The notes: generated by a model not told the origin, from the sequence alone. A stretch of DNA of 64,000 bases from an uncultured Planctomycetales bacterium (GCA_964526305.1 CAZGKV010000005.1:41546-105545); one strand, 5' to 3'. Counted from the stretch's first letter, positions 3 to 12,187 are shown. Translations and numbers: made by a program.

Positions 3-626
3 TTCGACCCGAATCGTTTCCTGCATCGCGCGGCGTTCGAGGCGACGCAGGACCACCTCGCGGTCCTGGTGGAGAACTTCCACATCAAGAATCCGCTGCG
101 GGCGGGAATGGAACTCCTGCCGCTCAAGAACGCGGCCAAGCTGGAAGCCGCCCTCTTCGACCGGGCGCTGGCGGCGCTCGCGGAACGGGGGACGGTCGTC
201 GTCGAGAATCAGAAGGTGCGGCGCTCGACCTTCGCGATCCGCCTCTCCAAGGAGGATGCGGAGGCCGCCGCCGAGATCGAACGGCTTCTTCGCGAAACGC
301 GCTTCCAGACCCCCCGCCAGGACGAGCTTTATTCCCGCTTCAAGTACACGAAGGACCGCATCGATCGAGTGCTGGGATTGCTCGTGGACAACGGCTCGGT
401 CGCCTCGCTCAAGGACGGCGTCCTTCTCCACCGCGACACGGTGAAAGAGGCCATCGAGGTGGTGACGAAGGCGATCCGGGAACGGGGCGCGATCGAAGCC
501 GCCCAGTTCCGGGATCTGGTGGGTACGACGCGGAAATACGTCATCCCGCTCCTGGAGCATCTCGACGATCTCGGGGTGACTCAGCGGGTGGAAAACAAGC
601 GGGTTCTGCGCAAGAGTCCGAAGTGA
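3..626 (+). CDS. selB: Selenocysteine-specific elongation factor, C-terminal winged-helix (SECIS-binding) part; 5' truncated by window edge
   Basis: Frame is open from position 3. C-terminus FRDLVGTTRKYVIPLLEHLDDLGVTQRVENKRVL matches the SelB WH4 signature (SRKYAIPLLEYLD..G.T.R). Confidence 0.9.
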   Translation, partial: FDPNRFLHRAAFEATQDHLAVLVENFHIKNPLRAGMELLPLKNAAKLEAALFDRALAALAERGTVVVENQKVRRSTFAIRLSKEDAEAAAEIERLLRETRFQTPRQDELYSRFKYTKDRIDRVLGLLVDNGSVASLKDGVLLHRDTVKEAIEVVTKAIRERGAIEAAQFRDLVGTTRKYVIPLLEHLDDLGVTQRVENKRVLRKSPK

Positions 627-1192
627 CGGGGGAGCGATCGATCCAGGACGGGGACGTGGAACTGATGCTCCGTCTGCAGGGCGGAGACGAAGCCGCCTTC
701 GAGGACCTCGTTCGCCGTCATCAGCGCAACGTCCTGAACCTGGTGTATCGATATCTCGGCAACGCCGGCGATGCGGAGGACGTGGCTCAGGAGGTGTTTT
801 TCAAGGTCTACCGAGCGCGGCACCAGTACGAGCCGAAGGCCAAGTTCTCGACGTGGCTCTACCGCGTGACGGTCAACCATTGCCTCAACGAAATCCGCTC
901 GCGCAAGTCGCAGCCGGCGAGCTCGGAGCTCTCGGACGATCTCCTGAAAGACTCCGGAGTGATCAACCCGGACGCCAACCTCGACCGGGAAGATCTGCAG
1001 CACGCGGTCAAGGCCGCGGTCGACGCGCTTCCCGAGCATCAGCGGATGGCGGTGATCCTCGCCCGATACGAAGAGTTAAGCTACGAGGAGATCGCCGAGA
1101 CGATGGGGATCTCCCTCGAGGCCGTCAAGTCCGTCCTGCATCGTGCGAAGGAAACGCTGAAAGAGAAACTGCTTCACTTCGTCAAGCGCTGA
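623..1192 (+). CDS. ECF sigma-70 factor (SigW/RpoE-like)
   Basis: Region 2 (AEDVAQEVFFKVY, FSTWLYRVTVNHCLNEIR) and region 4 (YEEIAETMGISLEAVKSVLHRAK). GTGA overlap with the selB stop. Confidence 0.9.
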   Translation: MTGERSIQDGDVELMLRLQGGDEAAFEDLVRRHQRNVLNLVYRYLGNAGDAEDVAQEVFFKVYRARHQYEPKAKFSTWLYRVTVNHCLNEIRSRKSQPASSELSDDLLKDSGVINPDANLDREDLQHAVKAAVDALPEHQRMAVILARYEELSYEEIAETMGISLEAVKSVLHRAKETLKEKLLHFVKR

Positions 1193-4756: not shown

Positions 4757-5929
4757 GTGAGACTCTCTCTGGTTCTCCTGGCGCTCGTCGGCTGCGCGAG
4801 CGGCCCCACGTTTCTCGCCGGAACGGCCGTCACGAATCTCACGCCGGATCATGCCGTGCCCTTGGGAGGCTATGGGGCCAGGAAGGGCAGACCCATGACG
4901 GGACTCCACGATCCCGTCCAGGCGAAAGCGCTCTGGCTCGAATTGGGGGAGCGGCGCATCTGCCTCGTCACCACCGATCTCATCGGGACCTCCGACGAAT
5001 TCCGGAGCGAGGTCGTGAAGCGGCTGCCTGCAGAATACCGCTGCGACCTGATCATCGCCGCCAGCCACAACCACTCAGGCCCTGGAGCCCTCACGCGCAA
5101 TCCGTGGCTTCAGATTGCAATGGGCAAGTTCGATCCCGAGCTCTACGAAACTTATGTTCGTAAGATCACCGATCTCATCGTCTCTTCCGCTCGAGCTCGA
5201 TCGCCGGCCCGCGTGGGGTTCGCAACCGGAAGCGCTCCCGACCTTCAGCGCAACCGGCGATCCAAGCACTATCCGGGCGCCGCGCCCCTCGACCCGGAAG
5301 TGCTGATCGCTCAAGTCGACGGCGGAGTCTTGGTCAACTATGCAGCGCACGGTACGGTGCTCGGGAGCGACAACTTTCTCCTTTCCGGGGATTGGCCGGG
5401 GGCGTTTCAGCGGGCCCTGGAGCGGAAGATCGCCAAGACGGTCCTCTATGCCAACGGAGCCGAAGGAGATCTGTCGCCGGTGCCCCCGGGTGGAACCGAC
5501 GACTTCGAGCGCTGCGAGCGGATGGGGGAGGCATTGGCCGCTCGCGTCGAATCTTGGATTCGGGAGGTCCGGCGAAAGCCCGCTCGACGACTGCTCTATA
5601 TAGAGGAAGCCGTTTCCCTTCCCAAGGCGACGCTTCCGCTCCTCCCCTCTCGAAGCGTGGTCGGCCTGCTCGTCGTCGACGAGACCGCCTTTCTCTGCGT
5701 CCCTGGGGAGATGTGCGCGGATCTTGGATTGGAACTCAAGCGCCGATTTCGCGAGCGGGGATTTCGGTTCGTGGCGATCTTGGGGTTGGCGAACGACCAT
5801 CTCGGGTACTTCCTGACCGAAGAACAGCATCGGAAAGGCGGTTACGAGCGCGACATGAGTCTCTATGGCTCGGGAATGGGGCCGTTTCTCCTCGAGGCCT
5901 TCGACCGGTTGGCGGCACGCGCGCGATAG
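4757..5929 (+). CDS. Neutral/alkaline ceramidase-family hydrolase, lipoprotein
   Basis: Lipobox LALVGC, ASHNHSGP, NYAAHGT, ANGAEGDLSP, LANDHLGY, GGYE. Confidence 0.75.
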   Translation: MRLSLVLLALVGCASGPTFLAGTAVTNLTPDHAVPLGGYGARKGRPMTGLHDPVQAKALWLELGERRICLVTTDLIGTSDEFRSEVVKRLPAEYRCDLIIAASHNHSGPGALTRNPWLQIAMGKFDPELYETYVRKITDLIVSSARARSPARVGFATGSAPDLQRNRRSKHYPGAAPLDPEVLIAQVDGGVLVNYAAHGTVLGSDNFLLSGDWPGAFQRALERKIAKTVLYANGAEGDLSPVPPGGTDDFERCERMGEALAARVESWIREVRRKPARRLLYIEEAVSLPKATLPLLPSRSVVGLLVVDETAFLCVPGEMCADLGLELKRRFRERGFRFVAILGLANDHLGYFLTEEQHRKGGYERDMSLYGSGMGPFLLEAFDRLAARAR

Positions 5930-5934
5930 CGCCT

Positions 5935-6471
5935 CTACTTTTTCGCTTCGAACTCGAGACAGACATGAGTCACCTTGCCGCTGGGCGAGGTGGTTTCCAT
6001 TCGTACGATCCAACCGGGAACGTCGCGGGAATACCAAGCCTGGGCGCGTCCGATTTCCTTTCCCTGGCAGTCGTAGACGACATCGGTGACGATGACGCAT
6101 CGAAGTTTTCGTCCCGCTACCTCTAGCTGCTCCGTCCCACGCTTCGGATTCGATCGGTGGAGATTCTTGCAGGTCGCGCAAGGCTCGGGGCGGGAGCTCG
6201 GCGGCTTGAGCTCGATCGGCGTCGGTTCGGTTTCAAACTCGCCGTCCCCGACTTTCACCTTCTGGACCGACTGGAGGAGGATGAGCTCTTCGTTCTTGGC
6301 CTGGAGGACGGTTCTCCCGGTGATGGTCGCGGAAGGGGACTCCACCCGATACCGGACCCAGGATCCTTTTTCGAATCGAACCCAGGCGTCCCAAGGGACG
6401 AAGACGATCGCGTCGTCGTCCGTTTTGGGGGAGTCTTGGAGGAAGAGGGAACAGACGAGCGTCAAGACCAT
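5935..6471 (-). CDS. Hypothetical exported protein
   Basis: Signal-like N-terminus, coherent 178-aa ORF, TATGAT 6 nt upstream of the ATG. Confidence 0.65.
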   Translation of the reverse strand: MVLTLVCSLFLQDSPKTDDDAIVFVPWDAWVRFEKGSWVRYRVESPSATITGRTVLQAKNEELILLQSVQKVKVGDGEFETEPTPIELKPPSSRPEPCATCKNLHRSNPKRGTEQLEVAGRKLRCVIVTDVVYDCQGKEIGRAQAWYSRDVPGWIVRMETTSPSGKVTHVCLEFEAKK

Positions 6472-6526
6472 AGCCAGATCATACCTCAGATGGAACTTCA
6501 GGGGGTAGCTCGCCGGCGCTCCCGGT

Positions 6527-7831
6527 CTACTGGAGCGCTCCCCGTCCCCGCTTCTGGGCCGCCTGGGTCCCGGAAGAGCTCAGCCAAATCGGTGTCGAGA
6601 GCCGGTCCTCCGTCCACGGCAGGACTTCGGCGGGAGTGACCTCGGCGAGGATCGGCACTACTCTCTGGAGCGCTTGCGTGAGACGCTCCTGGCGAGCCAA
6701 GTTGCCCTTTTCGGAAGGAACAACCGCCGATCCGTCCTGCGAAAAGAGATCCGCATCTTCTGCGGCAACCCGGTATGCGATCGCCGATTTCCAGAGATCC
6801 GATATGCGGTCGAGATGGGTGATCGCCAGACCGTCGACGGGACAGACAACGAGGGCGTATCGTGCGAGAACGAGGTCGGGCCAACCGACGCGAAAAGGTC
6901 GTGGCCACCCGCCTTCCTCCTGAAGATGCGGTTCGGGGAGACGCACGGCGAGTTCGGGCGACTCGGTCGGGAACGGCCCCTCGCCATGGCGCGTGAGATA
7001 CGTTCGCAGCACGCCGAGGCGGCGAACGGGCCCGTCGAATTTCGACAGAAGCGACTCCGTGCCTTCGCCGGTGCACGTGCTCCACGTGGTGTGCGGGTGG
7101 AAGCCTCTCCACTCGTCCAGGAGCACTCCCTGCGCACCCTCGAAGACGACCGTCCCTTCGATATCGTGCAGAGCCTCCTCGACGACCGCCGGCCCGACTG
7201 GCCGGATCGCCTCGAGCCACCGGTCTACGACATTGGGATCCTCAAGCATCGCCCGCTCGGTGCGCGCGAGAGTTCCGTCGGGGAATCCGCGGAACTCGGC
7301 ATGCAGCCGTTGCTGCGCCTGAGAGGTCTTGCGGCGCAGATCGGCGCCGCCAACGGCGAGATCCCGGGCGCGAATGGCATCCTCGGGATGATCGAGCGCG
7401 TCGCGGACCGCCTCGCCGATTCCCACCCCGCAGCTTCCGTGGCGCGCGGGGCCTCGCGCGAGCTCCCGAAGCCGGCCGGCGGCCTGATGGAACGGCGTGA
7501 CGATTCGAGCGCGGTCTGCTATCGAAAGGCGCTGTAGGGCGTCGGGAACGCCCACTTCCTGGAGTCGGCGGGCTTCGACCAGGAGCGCGGTGGGATGAAC
7601 CACGACATCCCGAGCCAGATAGGTGCGGACTCCAGGAACGAAACTTCCGGCGCCAAATTGGGCGAAGACGTGCCGGCGCCCGTCGGGAGCGACGACGGTG
7701 TGACCGGCCTGCGCGCCGCCGTTCCAACGCACGATGAGGCGAGCTCCTCGCGTGCGTGTCAGCCAGTCGACGACGGTTCCTTTGCCCGAATCGCCGAACG
7801 CGAGGTCGAGGACGATCCAGGCTTCGTTCAC
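6527..7831 (-). CDS. Adenylosuccinate synthetase (PurA)-like GTP-dependent ligase, divergent
   Basis: FGDSGKG P-loop, GGAQAGHTV, FEGAQGVLLD, TRHGEGPFPTE. GTG start at 7831 overlaps the vWA gene stop (GTGA). Confidence 0.85.
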   Translation of the reverse strand: MNEAWIVLDLAFGDSGKGTVVDWLTRTRGARLIVRWNGGAQAGHTVVAPDGRRHVFAQFGAGSFVPGVRTYLARDVVVHPTALLVEARRLQEVGVPDALQRLSIADRARIVTPFHQAAGRLRELARGPARHGSCGVGIGEAVRDALDHPEDAIRARDLAVGGADLRRKTSQAQQRLHAEFRGFPDGTLARTERAMLEDPNVVDRWLEAIRPVGPAVVEEALHDIEGTVVFEGAQGVLLDEWRGFHPHTTWSTCTGEGTESLLSKFDGPVRRLGVLRTYLTRHGEGPFPTESPELAVRLPEPHLQEEGGWPRPFRVGWPDLVLARYALVVCPVDGLAITHLDRISDLWKSAIAYRVAAEDADLFSQDGSAVVPSEKGNLARQERLTQALQRVVPILAEVTPAEVLPWTEDRLSTPIWLSSSGTQAAQKRGRGALQ

Positions 7832-8775
7832 GGAGCCGTCGAGGCGTCGGTATCCAGTCTTGGAAGAGGGACGCCGTCTTTCCCGAGAGTCGCCGCCCAC
7901 GGCGTCAGCGCTCGGACGACGGCCCCGATGCGATCGGGCGGATGTCCGCGGCGTTCCAATTCCTTCACGAGCGCCGCCACGTCCGCGAGAGCTCCCTCTC
8001 CGAGGGCGACGATTCCCGCCGCGACGGCGCAGGTGTCGGCCGGGCTTTCCATGGAAATGACTCGATCGCCCAAGACGTTACGCCAGGCGCGCTCGCACCG
8101 GACGCGGCGGTCGAGGTCGGGGATGAGGAAGAAGGGTTCGAGTGCGCGCTGCGCCTCGTCCACGACGACGGCGAGGGGGAGATCCTCCTCGAGTTCGTCG
8201 CCGAGGAGGCGTCGGACCGCCTCGCGCGAGAGCTGCGGGTAGGGTTTTTCGTCGCCGGTGAGGAAGAAGTAGCCTCGCTTGCCGCGAAGTCTCCGGCAGT
8301 CCATCTCGAGATGGCGCGCGGAGAAGTAGAGGGCGAGTTCGTACGACTCGTGGTCCCCCGGACCTCCGTGTCCCTCGAGCCAGCACCAGGTGAGCCACTG
8401 ATCCATGAGCTCGCCGGTCGACTCGAACTGTCCTACCTGGAGCGGCGCTTGATCGCTGAAGGCGTCTCCCACCGCCATGAAGAGCACTTGCGGGTCGGCG
8501 ATCCCAAGGTCGAGGAGCGTCCTGACGAAGCCCGGGAGCTCCTTCCGCGCGAGCCTCTCGGGGATTACTCCCATGGAGCCGGTCACGTCGAGGGCGAACG
8601 CGATCGCGAGGGATTGCGGATGTCCGACGCTGTCGCGACTTTCCCGAAGCTTTACCCCGAAGGGTTTCATCAGATCGTGGATGCGTTCCTGACGGAAGAC
8701 CTTCTGGATCGGCAGATCGGCGCGCTTTCGCGCGATCGCTTCGTGAGCCTCATAGCTGTATCCGCCGAATCCCAT
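7828..8775 (-). CDS. von Willebrand factor A (MIDAS) domain protein
   Basis: ALDVTGSM (DxTxS MIDAS), AVGDA, ESYELALY, FLTGDE. ATG at 8775. Confidence 0.8.
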   Translation of the reverse strand: MGFGGYSYEAHEAIARKRADLPIQKVFRQERIHDLMKPFGVKLRESRDSVGHPQSLAIAFALDVTGSMGVIPERLARKELPGFVRTLLDLGIADPQVLFMAVGDAFSDQAPLQVGQFESTGELMDQWLTWCWLEGHGGPGDHESYELALYFSARHLEMDCRRLRGKRGYFFLTGDEKPYPQLSREAVRRLLGDELEEDLPLAVVVDEAQRALEPFFLIPDLDRRVRCERAWRNVLGDRVISMESPADTCAVAAGIVALGEGALADVAALVKELERRGHPPDRIGAVVRALTPWAATLGKDGVPLPRLDTDASTAP

Positions 8776-8779
8776 CGTC

Positions 8780-9697
8780 TCACCGGGACAAGGAAAACGG
8801 GATGTACTTGGGGGGGCCGAACACGGTGCGGGCGACGGCATCGACTTGGTCCTTCAAGGCCCAGGCGTCGGTGGCCGAGCTCGGATCGGCGTTTCGTCGG
8901 AGAAGCTCCGCGAGCTCGGAGGGCACGACGGCCGGATCATCTCCGAGGGCGTAGAGGACGGCCCGAGCGCTCATCGCCACGTCGGCCGCTCCCTGCGCGG
9001 GTGCGGTCGCGCGAGACCAACCGACGAGGGCGACGCCGTGGTCGCGTGCGTGGACGAGAAGGTGCGGCGGGACGATCGCGCCGTGGGACCAACCCGCGCG
9101 GTGGAGCCACCCGAGGACCTCGAGCATCCGTTTCCAAAGCCAGATCGAGTGTTCCGGGGGGACTCCGCCGGGGTAGGCGGCCCGCACGTCCTCGAGGGTG
9201 TGGACGAAGCCGCTTCTCCAACGCAGCACCAAGACGGGGCGCTCCCCCTCCTGTCCGTTCATGCCGAGCCTCGCCGGGCCGCACGCCACCGGCTGAGGGA
9301 GGAGTCTCGAGAAGTGCGGAGTTCCCGGAGCCGAACTCTCCGGGATTTGTTCCAGCACCGCGAACTCGCGGGCCAGGACGCCCGGGTCCGCCGGCGCGCG
9401 AAGGACCTTGATCACGACCAACTCGGTCAGCCGCGAGTCGCGCCGGGCGAAGAAGACGTCCGAGCTCTCGCCGCGCGCGATTCGTCCGAGCACGCAGTAG
9501 CGGGCGGAGCCGACCCAAAGGCGCGGTCGAGCGGGATCGAGGAGAGCCTCCTCTTCCGGCGACGGCGCGGTGGCACGCCAAGTTCCCGAATGGACCGCGA
9601 GCGGCGACGCGCAGAACGAACAGCGGACGGTCCCGGACGGCGGAGGCGGCGGCAGAGGCGCGCCGCAGTTCGGGCAGCGGTGTTGCTGGTAGCTCAT
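8780..9697 (-). CDS. Zinc-ribbon plus degenerate Ser/Thr kinase-like (pseudokinase) protein
   Basis: CPNC...CSFC N-terminus. IARGESSDVF, VVIKVL, HGAIVPPHLLV (catalytic Asp absent), LVGWS in place of DFG. ATGA overlap with the upstream gene. Confidence 0.75.
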   Translation of the reverse strand: MSYQQHRCPNCGAPLPPPPPSGTVRCSFCASPLAVHSGTWRATAPSPEEEALLDPARPRLWVGSARYCVLGRIARGESSDVFFARRDSRLTELVVIKVLRAPADPGVLAREFAVLEQIPESSAPGTPHFSRLLPQPVACGPARLGMNGQEGERPVLVLRWRSGFVHTLEDVRAAYPGGVPPEHSIWLWKRMLEVLGWLHRAGWSHGAIVPPHLLVHARDHGVALVGWSRATAPAQGAADVAMSARAVLYALGDDPAVVPSELAELLRRNADPSSATDAWALKDQVDAVARTVFGPPKYIPFSLSR

Positions 9698-11223
9698 TGG
9701 GGACTGCGATATCCGCGACTCTCCAGCGTCGGAGGGACGAGGTGGTATGCCGGAATCCCGCCGCCGCCCAGGGCCTCGCGGCAGAGCCGCTCCCGATGGA
9801 TCGCACGAGAAAACGCTTGGCGCACCCGTTTGTCGTCGAACGGCTTCCCTCGAACGTTCAGCATCAGGAATGCGGTTCCAAACGTGACGGTCGAATGGAA
9901 GTCGGATCGGCCGCGAAGGCGCGCGAGCGATTCCGGCGAGACGGTCTCGAGATAGTCGCAGTCTCCCCGCTCGTACAGCTCGAGTGCCCGGTCGGGATCG
10001 TCGATCGGAAGCCAGCGCACCAGCTCCTGCTTCACGGACGCCGCGTTCCAGTAGCGGTCGTTCTTCGCGAGCAGGATGTGCTTGCTTGGGACATGCTCGA
10101 CAAGCCGGAACGGTCCGTTCGCGACGACCGTATCGCTCCAGACCGCGTCCGACCGGGCCGGGTGGAGCGGATACCGCGAGGCGAGTTCGAGGAAATAGGG
10201 AACGGGCGCTCGGAGGCGGACGACGAGCGTGCGGTCGTCTTGCACAGCGACTCCTACCGAAGAAGCGTCCCCCGTGCCCTTGTGGAATTCCTCGGCTCCG
10301 GCCAGCACGAAAAGCGCGGAGGCGCTCGGGGACTCCGTCGACGGATCGAGGATCCTCTTCCAGGCGTATTCGAAGTCTCTCGCGCGGACGGGCTCGCCGT
10401 CGCTCCACGCGGCCTCGCGGAGATGGAAGACGTACCGCAAGCCGTCTCCCGAGATCTCCCAGCGTTCGGCGATTCCCGGAACGGGCGCCAGGGTTCTGGG
10501 ATCCGGACGCACCAGGCCCTCGAAAAGGCAGACGACGATGCGCTCCTCGGAGACCTCCCGGACCTGCGCGGAATCGAAGACGTCGACCTCCCCACCGTTG
10601 TTGAGCACGAGCACTCCGGATCCGGATCCCTTGGCGACCTCGTTGAGCGGATGGAGGTCGTACCAGTTTTGGTAGATCCCCGTCACCTCGCGATCGCGGT
10701 AGAGGTTTTGACTCGCGAAGAAGTAAAGCGGGATCACGGGCAGCTCGTCGAGGAGGATCTCCTCCGCTCGCTGGAGCAGCCTCGTTCGCGCGGCGGCGTC
10801 CTGTTCGCGGGCGGCGCGGTCGAGGCAATCCTCGTACTCGGCGTTGGACCATCCGGTGGTATTGAACGGATTTCCCTTTCGCATCAAGTCGAGGAAGGCG
10901 ACGGGGTCCGGAACTTCGCCGACCCACGCTCGACGGAGGATCTCGTACTCGCCGCGATCCGCGGCGGCGAGCAGACCTTTCCAGTCCTGGATCGAGTGAT
11001 GGATCTCCACCCCGAGCCGCTCGTTCCATCGCTCGATGAGGCTCGTGCTCAGGCGGGTGGTCGTTCCGGTCGGATGGATCGTGAGGAGGACCTGCGGGAA
11101 ACCCTTTCCCTCGGGATAGCCGGCCTCGGATAGGAGGCGGCGGTCTTCGTCCGGAGCCTGAGACCTCGGCGACGACGAACAAGCAAGCATCGACAGGATC
11201 AGACCGGCCCGCAGTGTGCGCAT
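9694..11223 (-). CDS. Circularly permuted peptide ABC transporter substrate-binding lipoprotein (OppA/family 5)
   Basis: Lipobox MLAC. The normally C-terminal segment LLSEAGYPEGKGFP...PVIPLY...HPL comes first, then GSGSG, then the normally N-terminal segment VLNNGGE..LFEGLV..WSDG..GPF..PFDDKRVRQA..LVPP. Confidence 0.85.
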   Translation of the reverse strand: MRTLRAGLILSMLACSSSPRSQAPDEDRRLLSEAGYPEGKGFPQVLLTIHPTGTTTRLSTSLIERWNERLGVEIHHSIQDWKGLLAAADRGEYEILRRAWVGEVPDPVAFLDLMRKGNPFNTTGWSNAEYEDCLDRAAREQDAAARTRLLQRAEEILLDELPVIPLYFFASQNLYRDREVTGIYQNWYDLHPLNEVAKGSGSGVLVLNNGGEVDVFDSAQVREVSEERIVVCLFEGLVRPDPRTLAPVPGIAERWEISGDGLRYVFHLREAAWSDGEPVRARDFEYAWKRILDPSTESPSASALFVLAGAEEFHKGTGDASSVGVAVQDDRTLVVRLRAPVPYFLELASRYPLHPARSDAVWSDTVVANGPFRLVEHVPSKHILLAKNDRYWNAASVKQELVRWLPIDDPDRALELYERGDCDYLETVSPESLARLRGRSDFHSTVTFGTAFLMLNVRGKPFDDKRVRQAFSRAIHRERLCREALGGGGIPAYHLVPPTLESRGYRSPQ

Positions 11224-11224
11224 G

Positions 11225-12187
11225 CTATCGCCCCATCTCCCTTTCCCACGCGCCGACGGATCCTTCGGCGTCGTCCACGAGCGCCTTGAACGCATCGCGG
11301 TCGCGCGCGGCGTCCTTCAGCTCCTTCTCCAGCTTCTCGTTCGTCTTGTTCAGGTTCTTGATCTTCTCGTCCAGCACCCTGATTCCGGACTGCGCGGCTT
11401 TCCACTTCTTCTCCGCAGCCTCCATATCCTTCTTGAGTTTCTCTTTTTCCTTCTTGTCCTTCGCGCGGTCGTACTTGAAAGCGGCCTGTTTGAACGCCTC
11501 CTGGAGTTTCTTCTCCGCTTCGACGGCCGAGTTGTACTTCCGGAGGATGTCGTCCGAGTACTTCGGAAAGTCCTTGAGGGCCTTGTTGCATTTCTCCCAG
11601 CGGACGAGCGCGCTTTCATGTTTGGGCTTGCGAGTCTCGAGCTCTTTCTTCCAATGGGCCAGACGCTCCTTGCGATACTCGTCGATCGCGTCCAGGGCCT
11701 TGCCGATTTCGTCGAACTTGCCGATCCAGAGCTTGGCGATCGCGATCGCGCGATTGAAGAGGACCCCGCCGGTTTCGCGGTTCTTGTCGCCGGGCATCAC
11801 GCTCCGCGCGAAATAGTTCCGGATGCACTCCACGTCGTCGCTCGAGAACTTCTTGCGCACGGCGGAGGCCAGCTCGCCGGGCTCTTTGACCCGTTTCCGG
11901 TACTCGCCGAACTCGGTGCCTTGCTTTTCGTGGAAGTCGGTGGCCTCTTTGGCCAAGTTTCCAAGGCTCTGAATGAGGCTGGTCAGGGAGGAGCCGACCT
12001 GTTCCGCAAGCGTGCAGCAGGGGTCCGCGATCGACTTGTCGACCGTGTCGTCCTTCACCGGCTGCTCGCGCTTCGCGGCCACGGCCACGGCGGCCTTCCG
12101 CGCCTCGGAGAGGTGTTTCTTCGCTTCGGCGACGGAATCGGAGAAAAGGAGGGTACCGGCCAGGCCCAGCCACGCGTTCGCCATCAT
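11225..12187 (-). CDS. Exported Lys/Glu-rich coiled-coil protein
   Basis: Signal peptide MMANAWLGLAGTLLFS and heptad-like charged C-terminal half. ATGA overlap with the upstream gene. Confidence 0.75.
   Translation of the reverse strand: MMANAWLGLAGTLLFSDSVAEAKKHLSEARKAAVAVAAKREQPVKDDTVDKSIADPCCTLAEQVGSSLTSLIQSLGNLAKEATDFHEKQGTEFGEYRKRVKEPGELASAVRKKFSSDDVECIRNYFARSVMPGDKNRETGGVLFNRAIAIAKLWIGKFDEIGKALDAIDEYRKERLAHWKKELETRKPKHESALVRWEKCNKALKDFPKYSDDILRKYNSAVEAEKKLQEAFKQAAFKYDRAKDKKEKEKLKKDMEAAEKKWKAAQSGIRVLDEKIKNLNKTNEKLEKELKDAARDRDAFKALVDDAEGSVGAWEREMGR

Follow-up and report, generated by a model that had tools for sequence, protein, structure and literature searches.

What does a PurA-like enzyme do when its gene lies directly behind those of a von Willebrand factor A (vWA) protein and a kinase-fold protein, in a genome that encodes a canonical PurA elsewhere? 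The question is raised by positions 6,527 to 9,697 of a 64,000-nucleotide stretch of DNA from an uncultured Planctomycetales bacterium (GCA_964526305.1 CAZGKV010000005.1:41546-105545), the whole of which is referred to here as the window. Three minus-strand genes follow one another head to tail at these positions and code for a kinase-fold protein, a vWA protein and a relative of PurA (adenylosuccinate synthetase), the textbook enzyme that normally starts adenosine monophosphate (AMP) synthesis. The analysis presented below leads us to propose, tentatively and as something not quite probable, that the locus is a copy of a mobile, largely phage-borne cassette in which a ligase dependent on guanosine triphosphate (GTP) would join a purine nucleotide to a nucleophile other than aspartate, making a non-canonical 6-substituted purine compound, with the vWA protein as its obligate partner.

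The tight coupling of the three genes claimed in the original prediction, which was made from the nucleotide sequence of the stretch, agrees with the open reading frame (ORF) coordinates: four nucleotides separate the stop of the kinase-fold gene from the start of the vWA gene, and the GTG start of the PurA-like gene overlaps the vWA stop as GTGA. The product of the third gene is a member of the PurA family, scoring 211.2 bits against PF00709 (Pfam gathering cut-off 27) with its residues 6-361 aligned to profile positions 1-349 of 416, and its best solved relatives are ordinary PurA structures (3ue9, 2.6e-39; 1ade, 3.1e-35). It lies below the cut-offs of the NCBIfam purA equivalogs NF002223/TIGR00184 (178.4 vs 402 and 154.1 vs 395.55) and, at 44.4 bits, below the cut-off of 300 of NF038379, the model of the phage enzyme PurZ. 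Identity to database relatives reaches 59%; the labels given to the enzyme in databases are 'adenylosuccinate synthetase' and 'PurA-like', and in PHROGs '2-aminooxy adenylosuccinate synthetase'. The gene had further been predicted to be non-housekeeping, with a search for a separate canonical purA as the way to check it. Such a gene was found on contig 19 (C19) of the same genome, where it scores 599 bits against 211 for the window copy, so that the latter is not the only purA of the genome, and the same two-copy pattern recurs in 5/5 other cassette genomes, each with exactly one canonical purA (520-602 bits) and one paralog (178-252 bits).

The relationship of the second copies to PurA was assessed in a maximum-likelihood tree of 31 sequences, which was rooted at the midpoint only and included no PurZ sequence. 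The canonical PurAs are split from all vWA-linked sequences by a branch of length 1.99 with 100/100 support. The bacterial triad sequences cluster with a copy from the mycobacteriophage Catera (gp252) and one from a Rhodococcus plasmid (93/92); the J-domain-type triad of genome G176 and the variant associated with an AAA+ ATPase and a pyruvate-kinase-like (PK-like) barrel form separate branches, and the copies from a Rhizobium phage, a Vibrio phage and an Allorhizobium plasmid make up a long-branched group. The branching of the triads departs from taxonomy, Variovorax grouping with a member of the Lysobacteraceae and two Verrucomicrobiota and Archangium grouping with Chloroflexota, a mismatch that is consistent with horizontal transfer. 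A match recorded under 'Acinetobacter phage MD-2021a' was considered as PurZ and rejected, the record being a bacterial contig with a canonical purA between hisZ and other housekeeping genes, and was used as a canonical row. Two records filed as phage, L148 (CAKLQH020000034.1) and AGRM01000005.1, are evidently bacterial DNA, one with alaS, hisZ and a canonical purA and the other a Salmonella genome scaffold, and both inflate counts of phage PurA.

Active-site motifs were compared in an alignment of 24 vWA-linked PurA-like proteins (17 from bacterial triads of about ten phyla-level groups, two from a sister cassette, three from phages and two from plasmids) and seven canonical PurAs, and an alignment of 46 PurA-like sequences (A3) confirms the changes of the clade as invariant or at least 90% conserved. 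The window translation reads GDSGKG, AGHT, EEGGWPRPFRVGW and THLD where canonical PurA has GDEGKGK, AGHT, G(A/T)TTGRxRRCGW and TKLD, and thus bears the kept P-loop Asp and GHT, the replaced TTGR loop and the THLD that had been described for it. Retained across the clade are GDxGKG, GGxxAGH, EGAQG and GPxP, along with the Asp of T-x-L-D and, in most members, SxGP; the P-loop Asp and Lys and the His of GH(T), D14, K17 and H44 of the window protein, are invariant in the 46 sequences. The replacements are equally widespread. Canonical QGGxNAGHT has become NGGxQAGH(N/T) in 23/24 vWA-linked sequences and GTTxRGIGP has become G(S/T)CGxGxGE; the second P-loop Lys is lost; DxDxGTYP(F/Y)VTSS reads DEWxGFHPHTTWS in the triad type; TRVG is TRHG in 24/24, window copy included; and the Lys of TKLD, the guanine-specificity motif, is replaced in all 24, the Asp being kept and invariant in A3. 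In place of G(A/T)TTGRxRRCGW the clade has xxWQGxFRxG, one residue shorter, with TTGR retained in 0/24 sequences and both Thr and both Arg of TTGRxRR gone in every one of them. The altered loop of the original prediction therefore stands as a clade-wide loss of TTGR and RR, while its exact WPRP wording applies to the window lineage only.

In E. coli PurA, the two Thr and two Arg of TTGRxRR, together with the Val of TRVG, are what we take to be the pocket for L-aspartate (hadacidin), and Asn38, Thr129 and Arg143 of the partner subunit presumably hold the 5'-phosphate of inosine monophosphate (IMP). With the roles assigned in this way, the aspartate-pocket and IMP 5'-phosphate ligand positions are, on alignment, all changed in the clade, and the residues left in place are the P-loop Lys, the catalytic His and the Asp that serves as catalytic base; the claim that catalytic and GTP-site motifs are kept while aspartate-site residues are replaced is in this sense valid well beyond the window. 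Because they define a whole clade, the changes are not local decay. The conserved phosphoryl-transfer residues argue for an enzyme that would be active, and the family-wide, strongly conserved replacement of the pocket and the phosphate site argues for substrates that would have changed, rather than for decay. A decaying pseudo-operon was likewise ruled out, since the window proteins deviate at highly conserved columns no more than other family members do: in 7/137 columns for the PurA-like protein (family range 0-11, two outliers at 40 set aside) and in 0/51 and 1/35 for the other two.

The genetic linkage was examined in bacteria and in viruses. A scan of species-representative bacterial genomes returned at least 576 relatives, and the counts given here refer to the best 78 loci, which are spread over Myxococcota, Chloroflexota, Burkholderiales, Verrucomicrobiota, Acidobacteriota, Planctomycetota and Lysobacteraceae, among other groups. 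In 70 of these loci the genes for the kinase-fold, vWA and PurA-like proteins follow one another in that order on one strand, so that the coupling of the triad extends over several phyla and beyond chance, and a vWA gene followed by a PurA-like gene on the same strand is present in 72. Two loci lack only the kinase, their contigs beginning just upstream of the vWA gene, and four lack the PurA-like gene, their contigs ending at or within 600 nt after the vWA gene; the real exceptions to the pairing are L068, with two vWA genes and no PurA-like gene, and L144. No further conserved neighbour cluster is common to more than seven of the 78 bacterial loci, and the flanking neighbours that were tested are generic by Pfam (Ser/Thr kinases, response regulators, CNNM, ABC transporters, DEAD helicase). 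Within the window's phylum, 22 of 401 genomes have a vWA match, and at nine of the 27 loci other than the window's own all three genes are found within 1.5-kb flanks.

The pairing is also found in viruses. IMG/VR yielded at least 547 relatives, and in the best 80 loci a PurA-like gene lies downstream of the vWA gene on the same strand in 78, the other two being cut by contig ends. A kinase-fold gene is found upstream of the vWA gene in 24 of the 80 by tblastn and in 31 by clustering. In 39 loci, mostly without the kinase, the position directly upstream of the vWA gene is taken by a helical protein of about 123 aa (e.g. L193:5630-5998), which has no Pfam match; considered as a pseudokinase fragment, it was found to be unrelated (hhalign probability 0.15). 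Many of the viral cassette contigs measure 100-390 kb, and the neighbours at these loci include DNA ligase, RecA-like, helicase, Ro-like TROVE-vWA and R2K ATP-grasp genes. In GenBank phages the PurA-like protein is matched by 247 records and the vWA protein by 219, and Mycobacterium cluster C accounts for about 200 in either case. The pair adjoins PRTase_3 and NUDIX genes in Rhizobium phage RHph_TM30 (gp018-019), and anaerobic ribonucleotide reductase genes in Vibrio phage pv27. The vWA protein also occurs on 21 plasmids; megaplasmids are among the carriers of the core unit, and on one Rhodococcus and one Allorhizobium plasmid the three genes adjoin a NUDIX gene. The core unit is the pair of vWA and PurA-like genes, the pseudokinase is accessory, and the cassette belongs to phages no less than to bacteria.

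The vWA protein, labelled 'hypothetical' in databases, is the best conserved of the three, with up to 75% identity to database relatives. It has no match in Pfam (vWA models included), NCBIfam or PADLOC and is recognized by PHROG 2971 (5.5e-43). Its fold was assigned from a model built on a 54-sequence alignment (pLDDT, for predicted local distance difference test, 92.8), which Foldseek matches to the TFIIH p44 vWA domain (7lbm_3), integrin beta I-like domains, collagen VI and the NorD vWA domain; of 117 PDB chains at E <= 0.001, those listed are vWA or integrin I-like domains. Besides the metal ion-dependent adhesion site (MIDAS) motif, G174-D175-E176 is invariant in the 54 sequences. A profile search of 1.84 billion representatives returned 2,404 clusters (50% identity) at E <= 0.001, of which 1,110 at E <= 1e-30, and the ESM Atlas clusters nearest to the vWA protein are 90% and 63% viral and have no common Pfam family. 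Most homologues (L068-L228) carry a short, lineage-specific C-terminal tail. In Myxococcota it reads SG(H/Y)RR; many Burkholderiales and Verrucomicrobiota have WWKRLFG, and phages have an acidic-hydrophobic tail of the type ...EE(M/I)(M/I)L or ...G(V/I)xxL (e.g. ...EEMML, ...GVIKL); the tail motif seems to vary with the type of upstream partner. A complex of the cassette partners is what we infer from their linkage, and the complex prediction for the PurA-like protein (A3) with the vWA protein (A2) gave a score of 0.00 with no controls folded, which weighs neither for nor against such a complex. The window's genome has a second vWA paralog (46% identity; L025, G000 contig C9:69011-69922) that has no kinase or PurA-like gene nearby and is followed by two membrane proteins with similar N-termini, one of them with TPR repeats. 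In some Myxococcota, at loci L073, L075-L077, L121, L140 and L068, the triad has a second, tail-less vWA paralog in or beside it.

The AlphaFold model of the kinase-fold protein (pLDDT 90.9) has PknG 4y0x (E 2.2e-9), GAK and PknB (E ~1e-9) as its top Foldseek matches. The protein is up to 52% identical to relatives and matches PHROG 3043 'kinase' (8.2e-11); the window protein has no match in Pfam, and its homologue at L040 is above the Pkinase cut-off, with 54.8 bits. The original prediction of a kinase-like protein without both catalytic Asp residues and with an N-terminal zinc ribbon is confirmed in the translation, which has Ala207 at the HRD-Asp, His212 at the catalytic-loop Asn and Gly226 at the DFG-Asp position, and Cys at positions 8, 11, 26 and 29. 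In an alignment of 55 bacterial kinase-fold sequences (A4), the HRD-Asp position is Ala in 32, Asp in 16 and another residue in seven, the DFG-Asp position is Gly in 53 and Asp in one, and the catalytic-loop Asn position is His in 55/55, with the VAIK Lys kept in 54/55 and the helix-C Glu in 51/55. The two catalytic Asp residues occur together in 0/55 bacterial proteins and in 0/31 viral partners, none of the latter having Asp at position 207. The kinase-fold protein is, as predicted from these residues, incapable of classical phosphotransfer; the invariance of three His residues (H205, H212 and H220) in 55/55 sequences points to a conserved site with a function other than that of a kinase, and not simply to decay. 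The viral partners mostly have a different N-terminus: 25 of the 31 carry an HPD (J-domain) motif, and CxxC pairs are found in only two, both Variovorax-like. Catera gp249, L039 and L040 belong to the J-domain type as well.

More distant members of the same vWA family, with about 30% identity, occur in two sister arrangements. At L041:6588-12261 and L042:554-6804, the vWA gene stands between genes for an AAA+ ATPase of the classic clade and for a PK-like barrel, which is followed by a PurA-like protein with the WQG loop and T/S-G-L-D. In the Myxococcota loci L043-L054 (e.g. L044:544-4537) it lies between an NMNAT-like cytidylyltransferase gene and that of a pyruvate-kinase-like barrel, with glutamine-dependent NAD synthetase (NadE) encoded last. 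A NadE gene also lies directly upstream of the triad in three of the 78 bacterial loci (L094, L102 and L110), one of which has an NMNAT-like gene as well. These sister cassettes and NadE neighbours tie the vWA family repeatedly to nucleotide and cofactor enzymes that consume nucleoside triphosphates, and suggest that it also partners enzymes of NAD synthesis.

Full-text searches of the accessible literature found no functional description of the cassette, and term counts in the main texts of PMC7159879 and PMC7824862 gave neither 'adenylosuccinate' nor 'PurA'. The closest known systems share some features with the cassette and differ from it in others. With canonical PurA the enzyme has in common the family, the fold, the P-loop Asp and Lys, GH(T/N), EGAQG, the guanine Asp and SxGP; it differs in its sub-equivalog score, in the replacement of the aspartate loop, TRVG, the TKLD Lys, the GTT loop and the second P-loop Lys, and in being a second copy preceded by a vWA gene. 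The Bixzunavirus (cluster C1 mycobacteriophage) Catera has the same genes in the same order in gp249-gp252, the vWA protein being 39% and the PurA-like protein 41% identical, the latter (gp252) with TRHG, WQG and THLD, and the first a kinase-fold protein, under the record labels 'serine/threonine kinase', 'hypothetical protein' and 'PurA-like adenylosuccinate synthetase'. The Catera kinase partner differs in having an N-terminal J-domain HPD and no zinc ribbon and in keeping Asn and Asp at the two metal-ligand positions, and an extra 88-aa gene (gp251) separates its vWA gene (gp250) from the PurA-like gene. PurZ, the phage N6-succino-2-amino-2'-deoxyadenylate synthase, resembles the cassette enzyme as a phage-borne PurA paralog with altered substrate use, and PHROGs places both under phrog_1211. 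The cassette enzyme scores far below the PurZ cut-off, as noted above, and PurZ retains aspartate as its substrate, is accompanied by MazZ, DatZ and DpoZ, and is not known to travel with a vWA protein.

Two further comparisons concern the vWA and kinase-fold proteins. The TerY-P triad, which consists of a TerY-like vWA protein, a PP2C phosphatase and a Ser/Thr kinase with a zinc ribbon and which is, with related modules, defence-linked according to PMC11090510, is likewise mobile and made up of three genes, among them those of a MIDAS vWA protein and of a kinase-fold protein bearing a zinc ribbon. The window cassette differs in having no PP2C and a PurA-like enzyme in the third slot, in a kinase that lacks the catalytic residues and has its zinc ribbon at the N-terminus instead of the C-terminus, and in a vWA protein matched by no Pfam model; only three gene clusters are conserved across the loci, none of them a phosphatase. 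The AAA+/vWA pairs NorQ-NorD and CbbQ-CbbO share with the cassette a MIDAS vWA gene beside the enzyme that is thought to be serviced, the NorD vWA domain being among the fold matches and an AAA+ ATPase being present in the sister cassettes L041 and L042, whereas the window cassette has no ATPase and has the pseudokinase in that position. In PADLOC-DB 2.0 the kinase-fold protein has only weak matches, to PD-T4-6 (best 1.1e-4) and PglW, the vWA and PurA-like proteins have no match, and no system model was detected.

The model that we tentatively favour can be set out as follows. The cassette would be self-contained and horizontally mobile, with the vWA (MIDAS) gene followed by the PurA-like gene as its obligate core. 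The enzyme would keep the PurA machinery by which GTP phosphorylates a purine nucleotide at its 6-oxo group, and with this machinery kept and the aspartate pocket lost, GTP activation of a purine-type substrate and attack by some other nucleophile appear most likely. The substrate could be a nucleotide other than plain IMP, several ligands of the IMP 5'-phosphate being lost, and a purine compound with a non-canonical substituent at position 6 would result. The vWA protein would act as the physical partner or adaptor of the enzyme, and the kinase-fold protein as a scaffold or sensor whose N-terminal zinc ribbon (in bacteria) or J domain (in most phages) would link the pair to other factors. In many large phages the cassette is located in regions devoted to replication and nucleotide metabolism; its probable role would be the manipulation of nucleotide or cofactor pools in phage-host conflict, and any role in conflict may be on the phage side. 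The chromosomal copy in the window would be an acquired copy of this cassette.

Several points weigh against a ligase with a new nucleophile. The aspartate-site and IMP-site roles of the replaced residues are, for our purposes, assumed from structural work on E. coli PurA, and a novel binding mode, or assistance from the partner protein, could still accommodate aspartate. The NadE and NMNAT-like genes (3 loci) and the NUDIX and phosphoribosyltransferase (PRTase) neighbours fit plain pool replenishment equally well. The window copy is itself unusual: N304Q, Q310P and G311R each set its loop (GGWPRPF) apart from 45/45 other members of A3, in all of which the loop is WQG, WPRP thus being a variant specific to its lineage, and its vWA protein ends before the tail that most homologues have. 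With the tail missing and the loop off the invariant WQG, this copy may behave differently from its relatives. Finally, a search for longer relatives of the vWA protein gave no genuine vWA/PurA-like fusion, the four long proteins retrieved being discarded as read-through or frameshifted ORF calls, having Arg-rich junk linkers and internal 'MG.G' starts.

The retention of all catalytic motifs would also suit an auxiliary, differently regulated adenylosuccinate synthetase using IMP, aspartate and GTP, with which phages and some bacteria would rebuild adenylate and, indirectly, NAD pools, the aspartate being held by a rebuilt pocket or with the help of the vWA partner. Phages commonly carry genes of nucleotide metabolism, the pair adjoins ribonucleotide reductase, PRTase_3 and NUDIX genes, and both the NadE gene upstream of some triads, with its NMNAT-like companion in one case, and the related vWA genes lying between an NMNAT-like gene and a PK-like barrel with NadE point in the same direction. 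We nevertheless regard such an enzyme as unlikely, because the two Thr and two Arg of TTGRxRR are absent and the neighbouring Val is His in 24/24 sequences, because the scores are far under the purA equivalog cut-offs, and because every host tested already has a canonical purA. Three genes with variable flanks, found in several phyla and with a tree off taxonomy, could also be read as a defence or abortive-infection cassette of the TerY-P type, in which the vWA protein and the pseudokinase would sense infection and the PurA-like protein would be the effector, either burning GTP futilely without a nucleophile or making a toxic or signalling nucleotide; TerY-P triads and related modules are described as defence-linked in PMC11090510, and the weak PADLOC matches of the kinase are to PD-T4-6 kinases. 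The vWA and PurA-like proteins are without a PADLOC match and a PP2C gene is missing, lytic and large phages carry the core pair in abundance, in regions of replication genes, and the nearest ESM Atlas clusters are predominantly viral, all of which makes a defence function rather improbable.

The replacement of a dicarboxylate pocket by Trp, Gln, His and Phe, in an enzyme obligately paired with a protein-protein interaction domain, would also be compatible with protein modification, the activated purine nucleotide being attached to a protein amine presented by the vWA protein or the pseudokinase, or to one of these partners themselves. The tails of the vWA proteins, short motifs that are specific to a lineage and change with the kind of partner encoded upstream, would fit this idea, but the window vWA protein has no tail, and to our knowledge there is no precedent in the PF00709 family; we consider it the most doubtful of the explanations discussed.

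The coordinates of the three genes and of their diagnostic motifs are collected in Table 1. The solute-binding protein gene (SBP_bac_5) that overlaps the upstream end of the triad is not a conserved cassette neighbour at other loci, and a promoter and terminator scan of positions 5800-11600 gave 0 promoter-like sites and six terminator-like sites versus 4.2 expected, nothing exceeding the shuffled expectation. The SBP_bac_5 protein (9694-11295, minus strand) looks circularly permuted: it has two Pfam stretches, the best of which aligns residues 271-524 with profile positions 2-251, and its N-terminal third resembles the C-terminal part of its family. At the start of the window (69-1189, plus strand), SelB C-terminal winged-helix domains are followed by an ECF sigma factor.

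Table 1. Positions in the window of the cassette genes, their motifs and the overlap with the upstream gene.
Feature	Position	Strand	Basis
Zn-ribbon pseudokinase gene (305 aa, P0001)	8780..9697	-	ORF and translation, AlphaFold model, Foldseek, PHROG
N-terminal zinc ribbon C8, C11 ... C26, C29 (CPNC...CSFC)	9611..9676	-	C11 invariant; C8, C26, C29 at least 90% conserved in 55 sequences
Degenerate catalytic/activation-loop region H205-G-A207 ... H212 ... H220 ... G226	9020..9085	-	Column counts in A4
vWA (MIDAS) protein gene (315 aa, P0002)	7828..8775	-	Model, Foldseek, PHROG
MIDAS motif D63-V-T-G-S67	8575..8589	-	D63, V64, S67 invariant, T65 at least 90% conserved in 54 sequences
PurA-like gene, putative ligase (434 aa, P0003), GTG start	6527..7831	-	PF00709, NCBIfam, PDB match
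P-loop G13-D-S-G-K-G18	7778..7795	-	G13, D14, G16, K17, G18 invariant in 46 sequences; canonical GDEGKGK
Remodelled loop E305-EGGWPRPFRVG-W317, replacing canonical G(A/T)TTGRxRRCGW	6881..6919	-	Alignments; family consensus GWQGxFRxG
T338-H-L-D341, replacing canonical TKLD	6809..6820	-	D341 invariant, H339 at least 90% conserved (A3)
ATGA overlap of SBP_bac_5 gene stop and pseudokinase ATG start	9694..9697	-	

Work on PurZ has reportedly shown that a phage PurA paralog can rewrite DNA chemistry. The cassette described here brings a second and much larger clade of PurA paralogs, with a rebuilt amino-acid pocket and genetically bound to a vWA protein. The cassette is carried by about 200 well-studied mycobacteriophages and numerous viral contigs of jumbo size, and it is present in species-representative bacterial genomes in at least 576 stretches. 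In its boldest form, which we would call speculative and unlikely as a whole, the proposal is that the clade is a new class of GTP-dependent purine ligases whose product would be new to biochemistry, either an adenine nucleotide that is N6-substituted or directly aminated or an adduct of nucleotide and protein. With it, large phages would rebuild or mask their adenylate and NAD-type pools against host immunity that depletes nucleotides, J-domain or zinc-ribbon pseudokinases would connect the enzyme with chaperones or signals of the host, and bacterial triads such as the one in the window would be captured copies. Whether a new nucleotide or an immune-evasion pool enzyme emerges, phage biology would benefit and so would annotation, since these genes are at present automatically named 'adenylosuccinate synthetase'.

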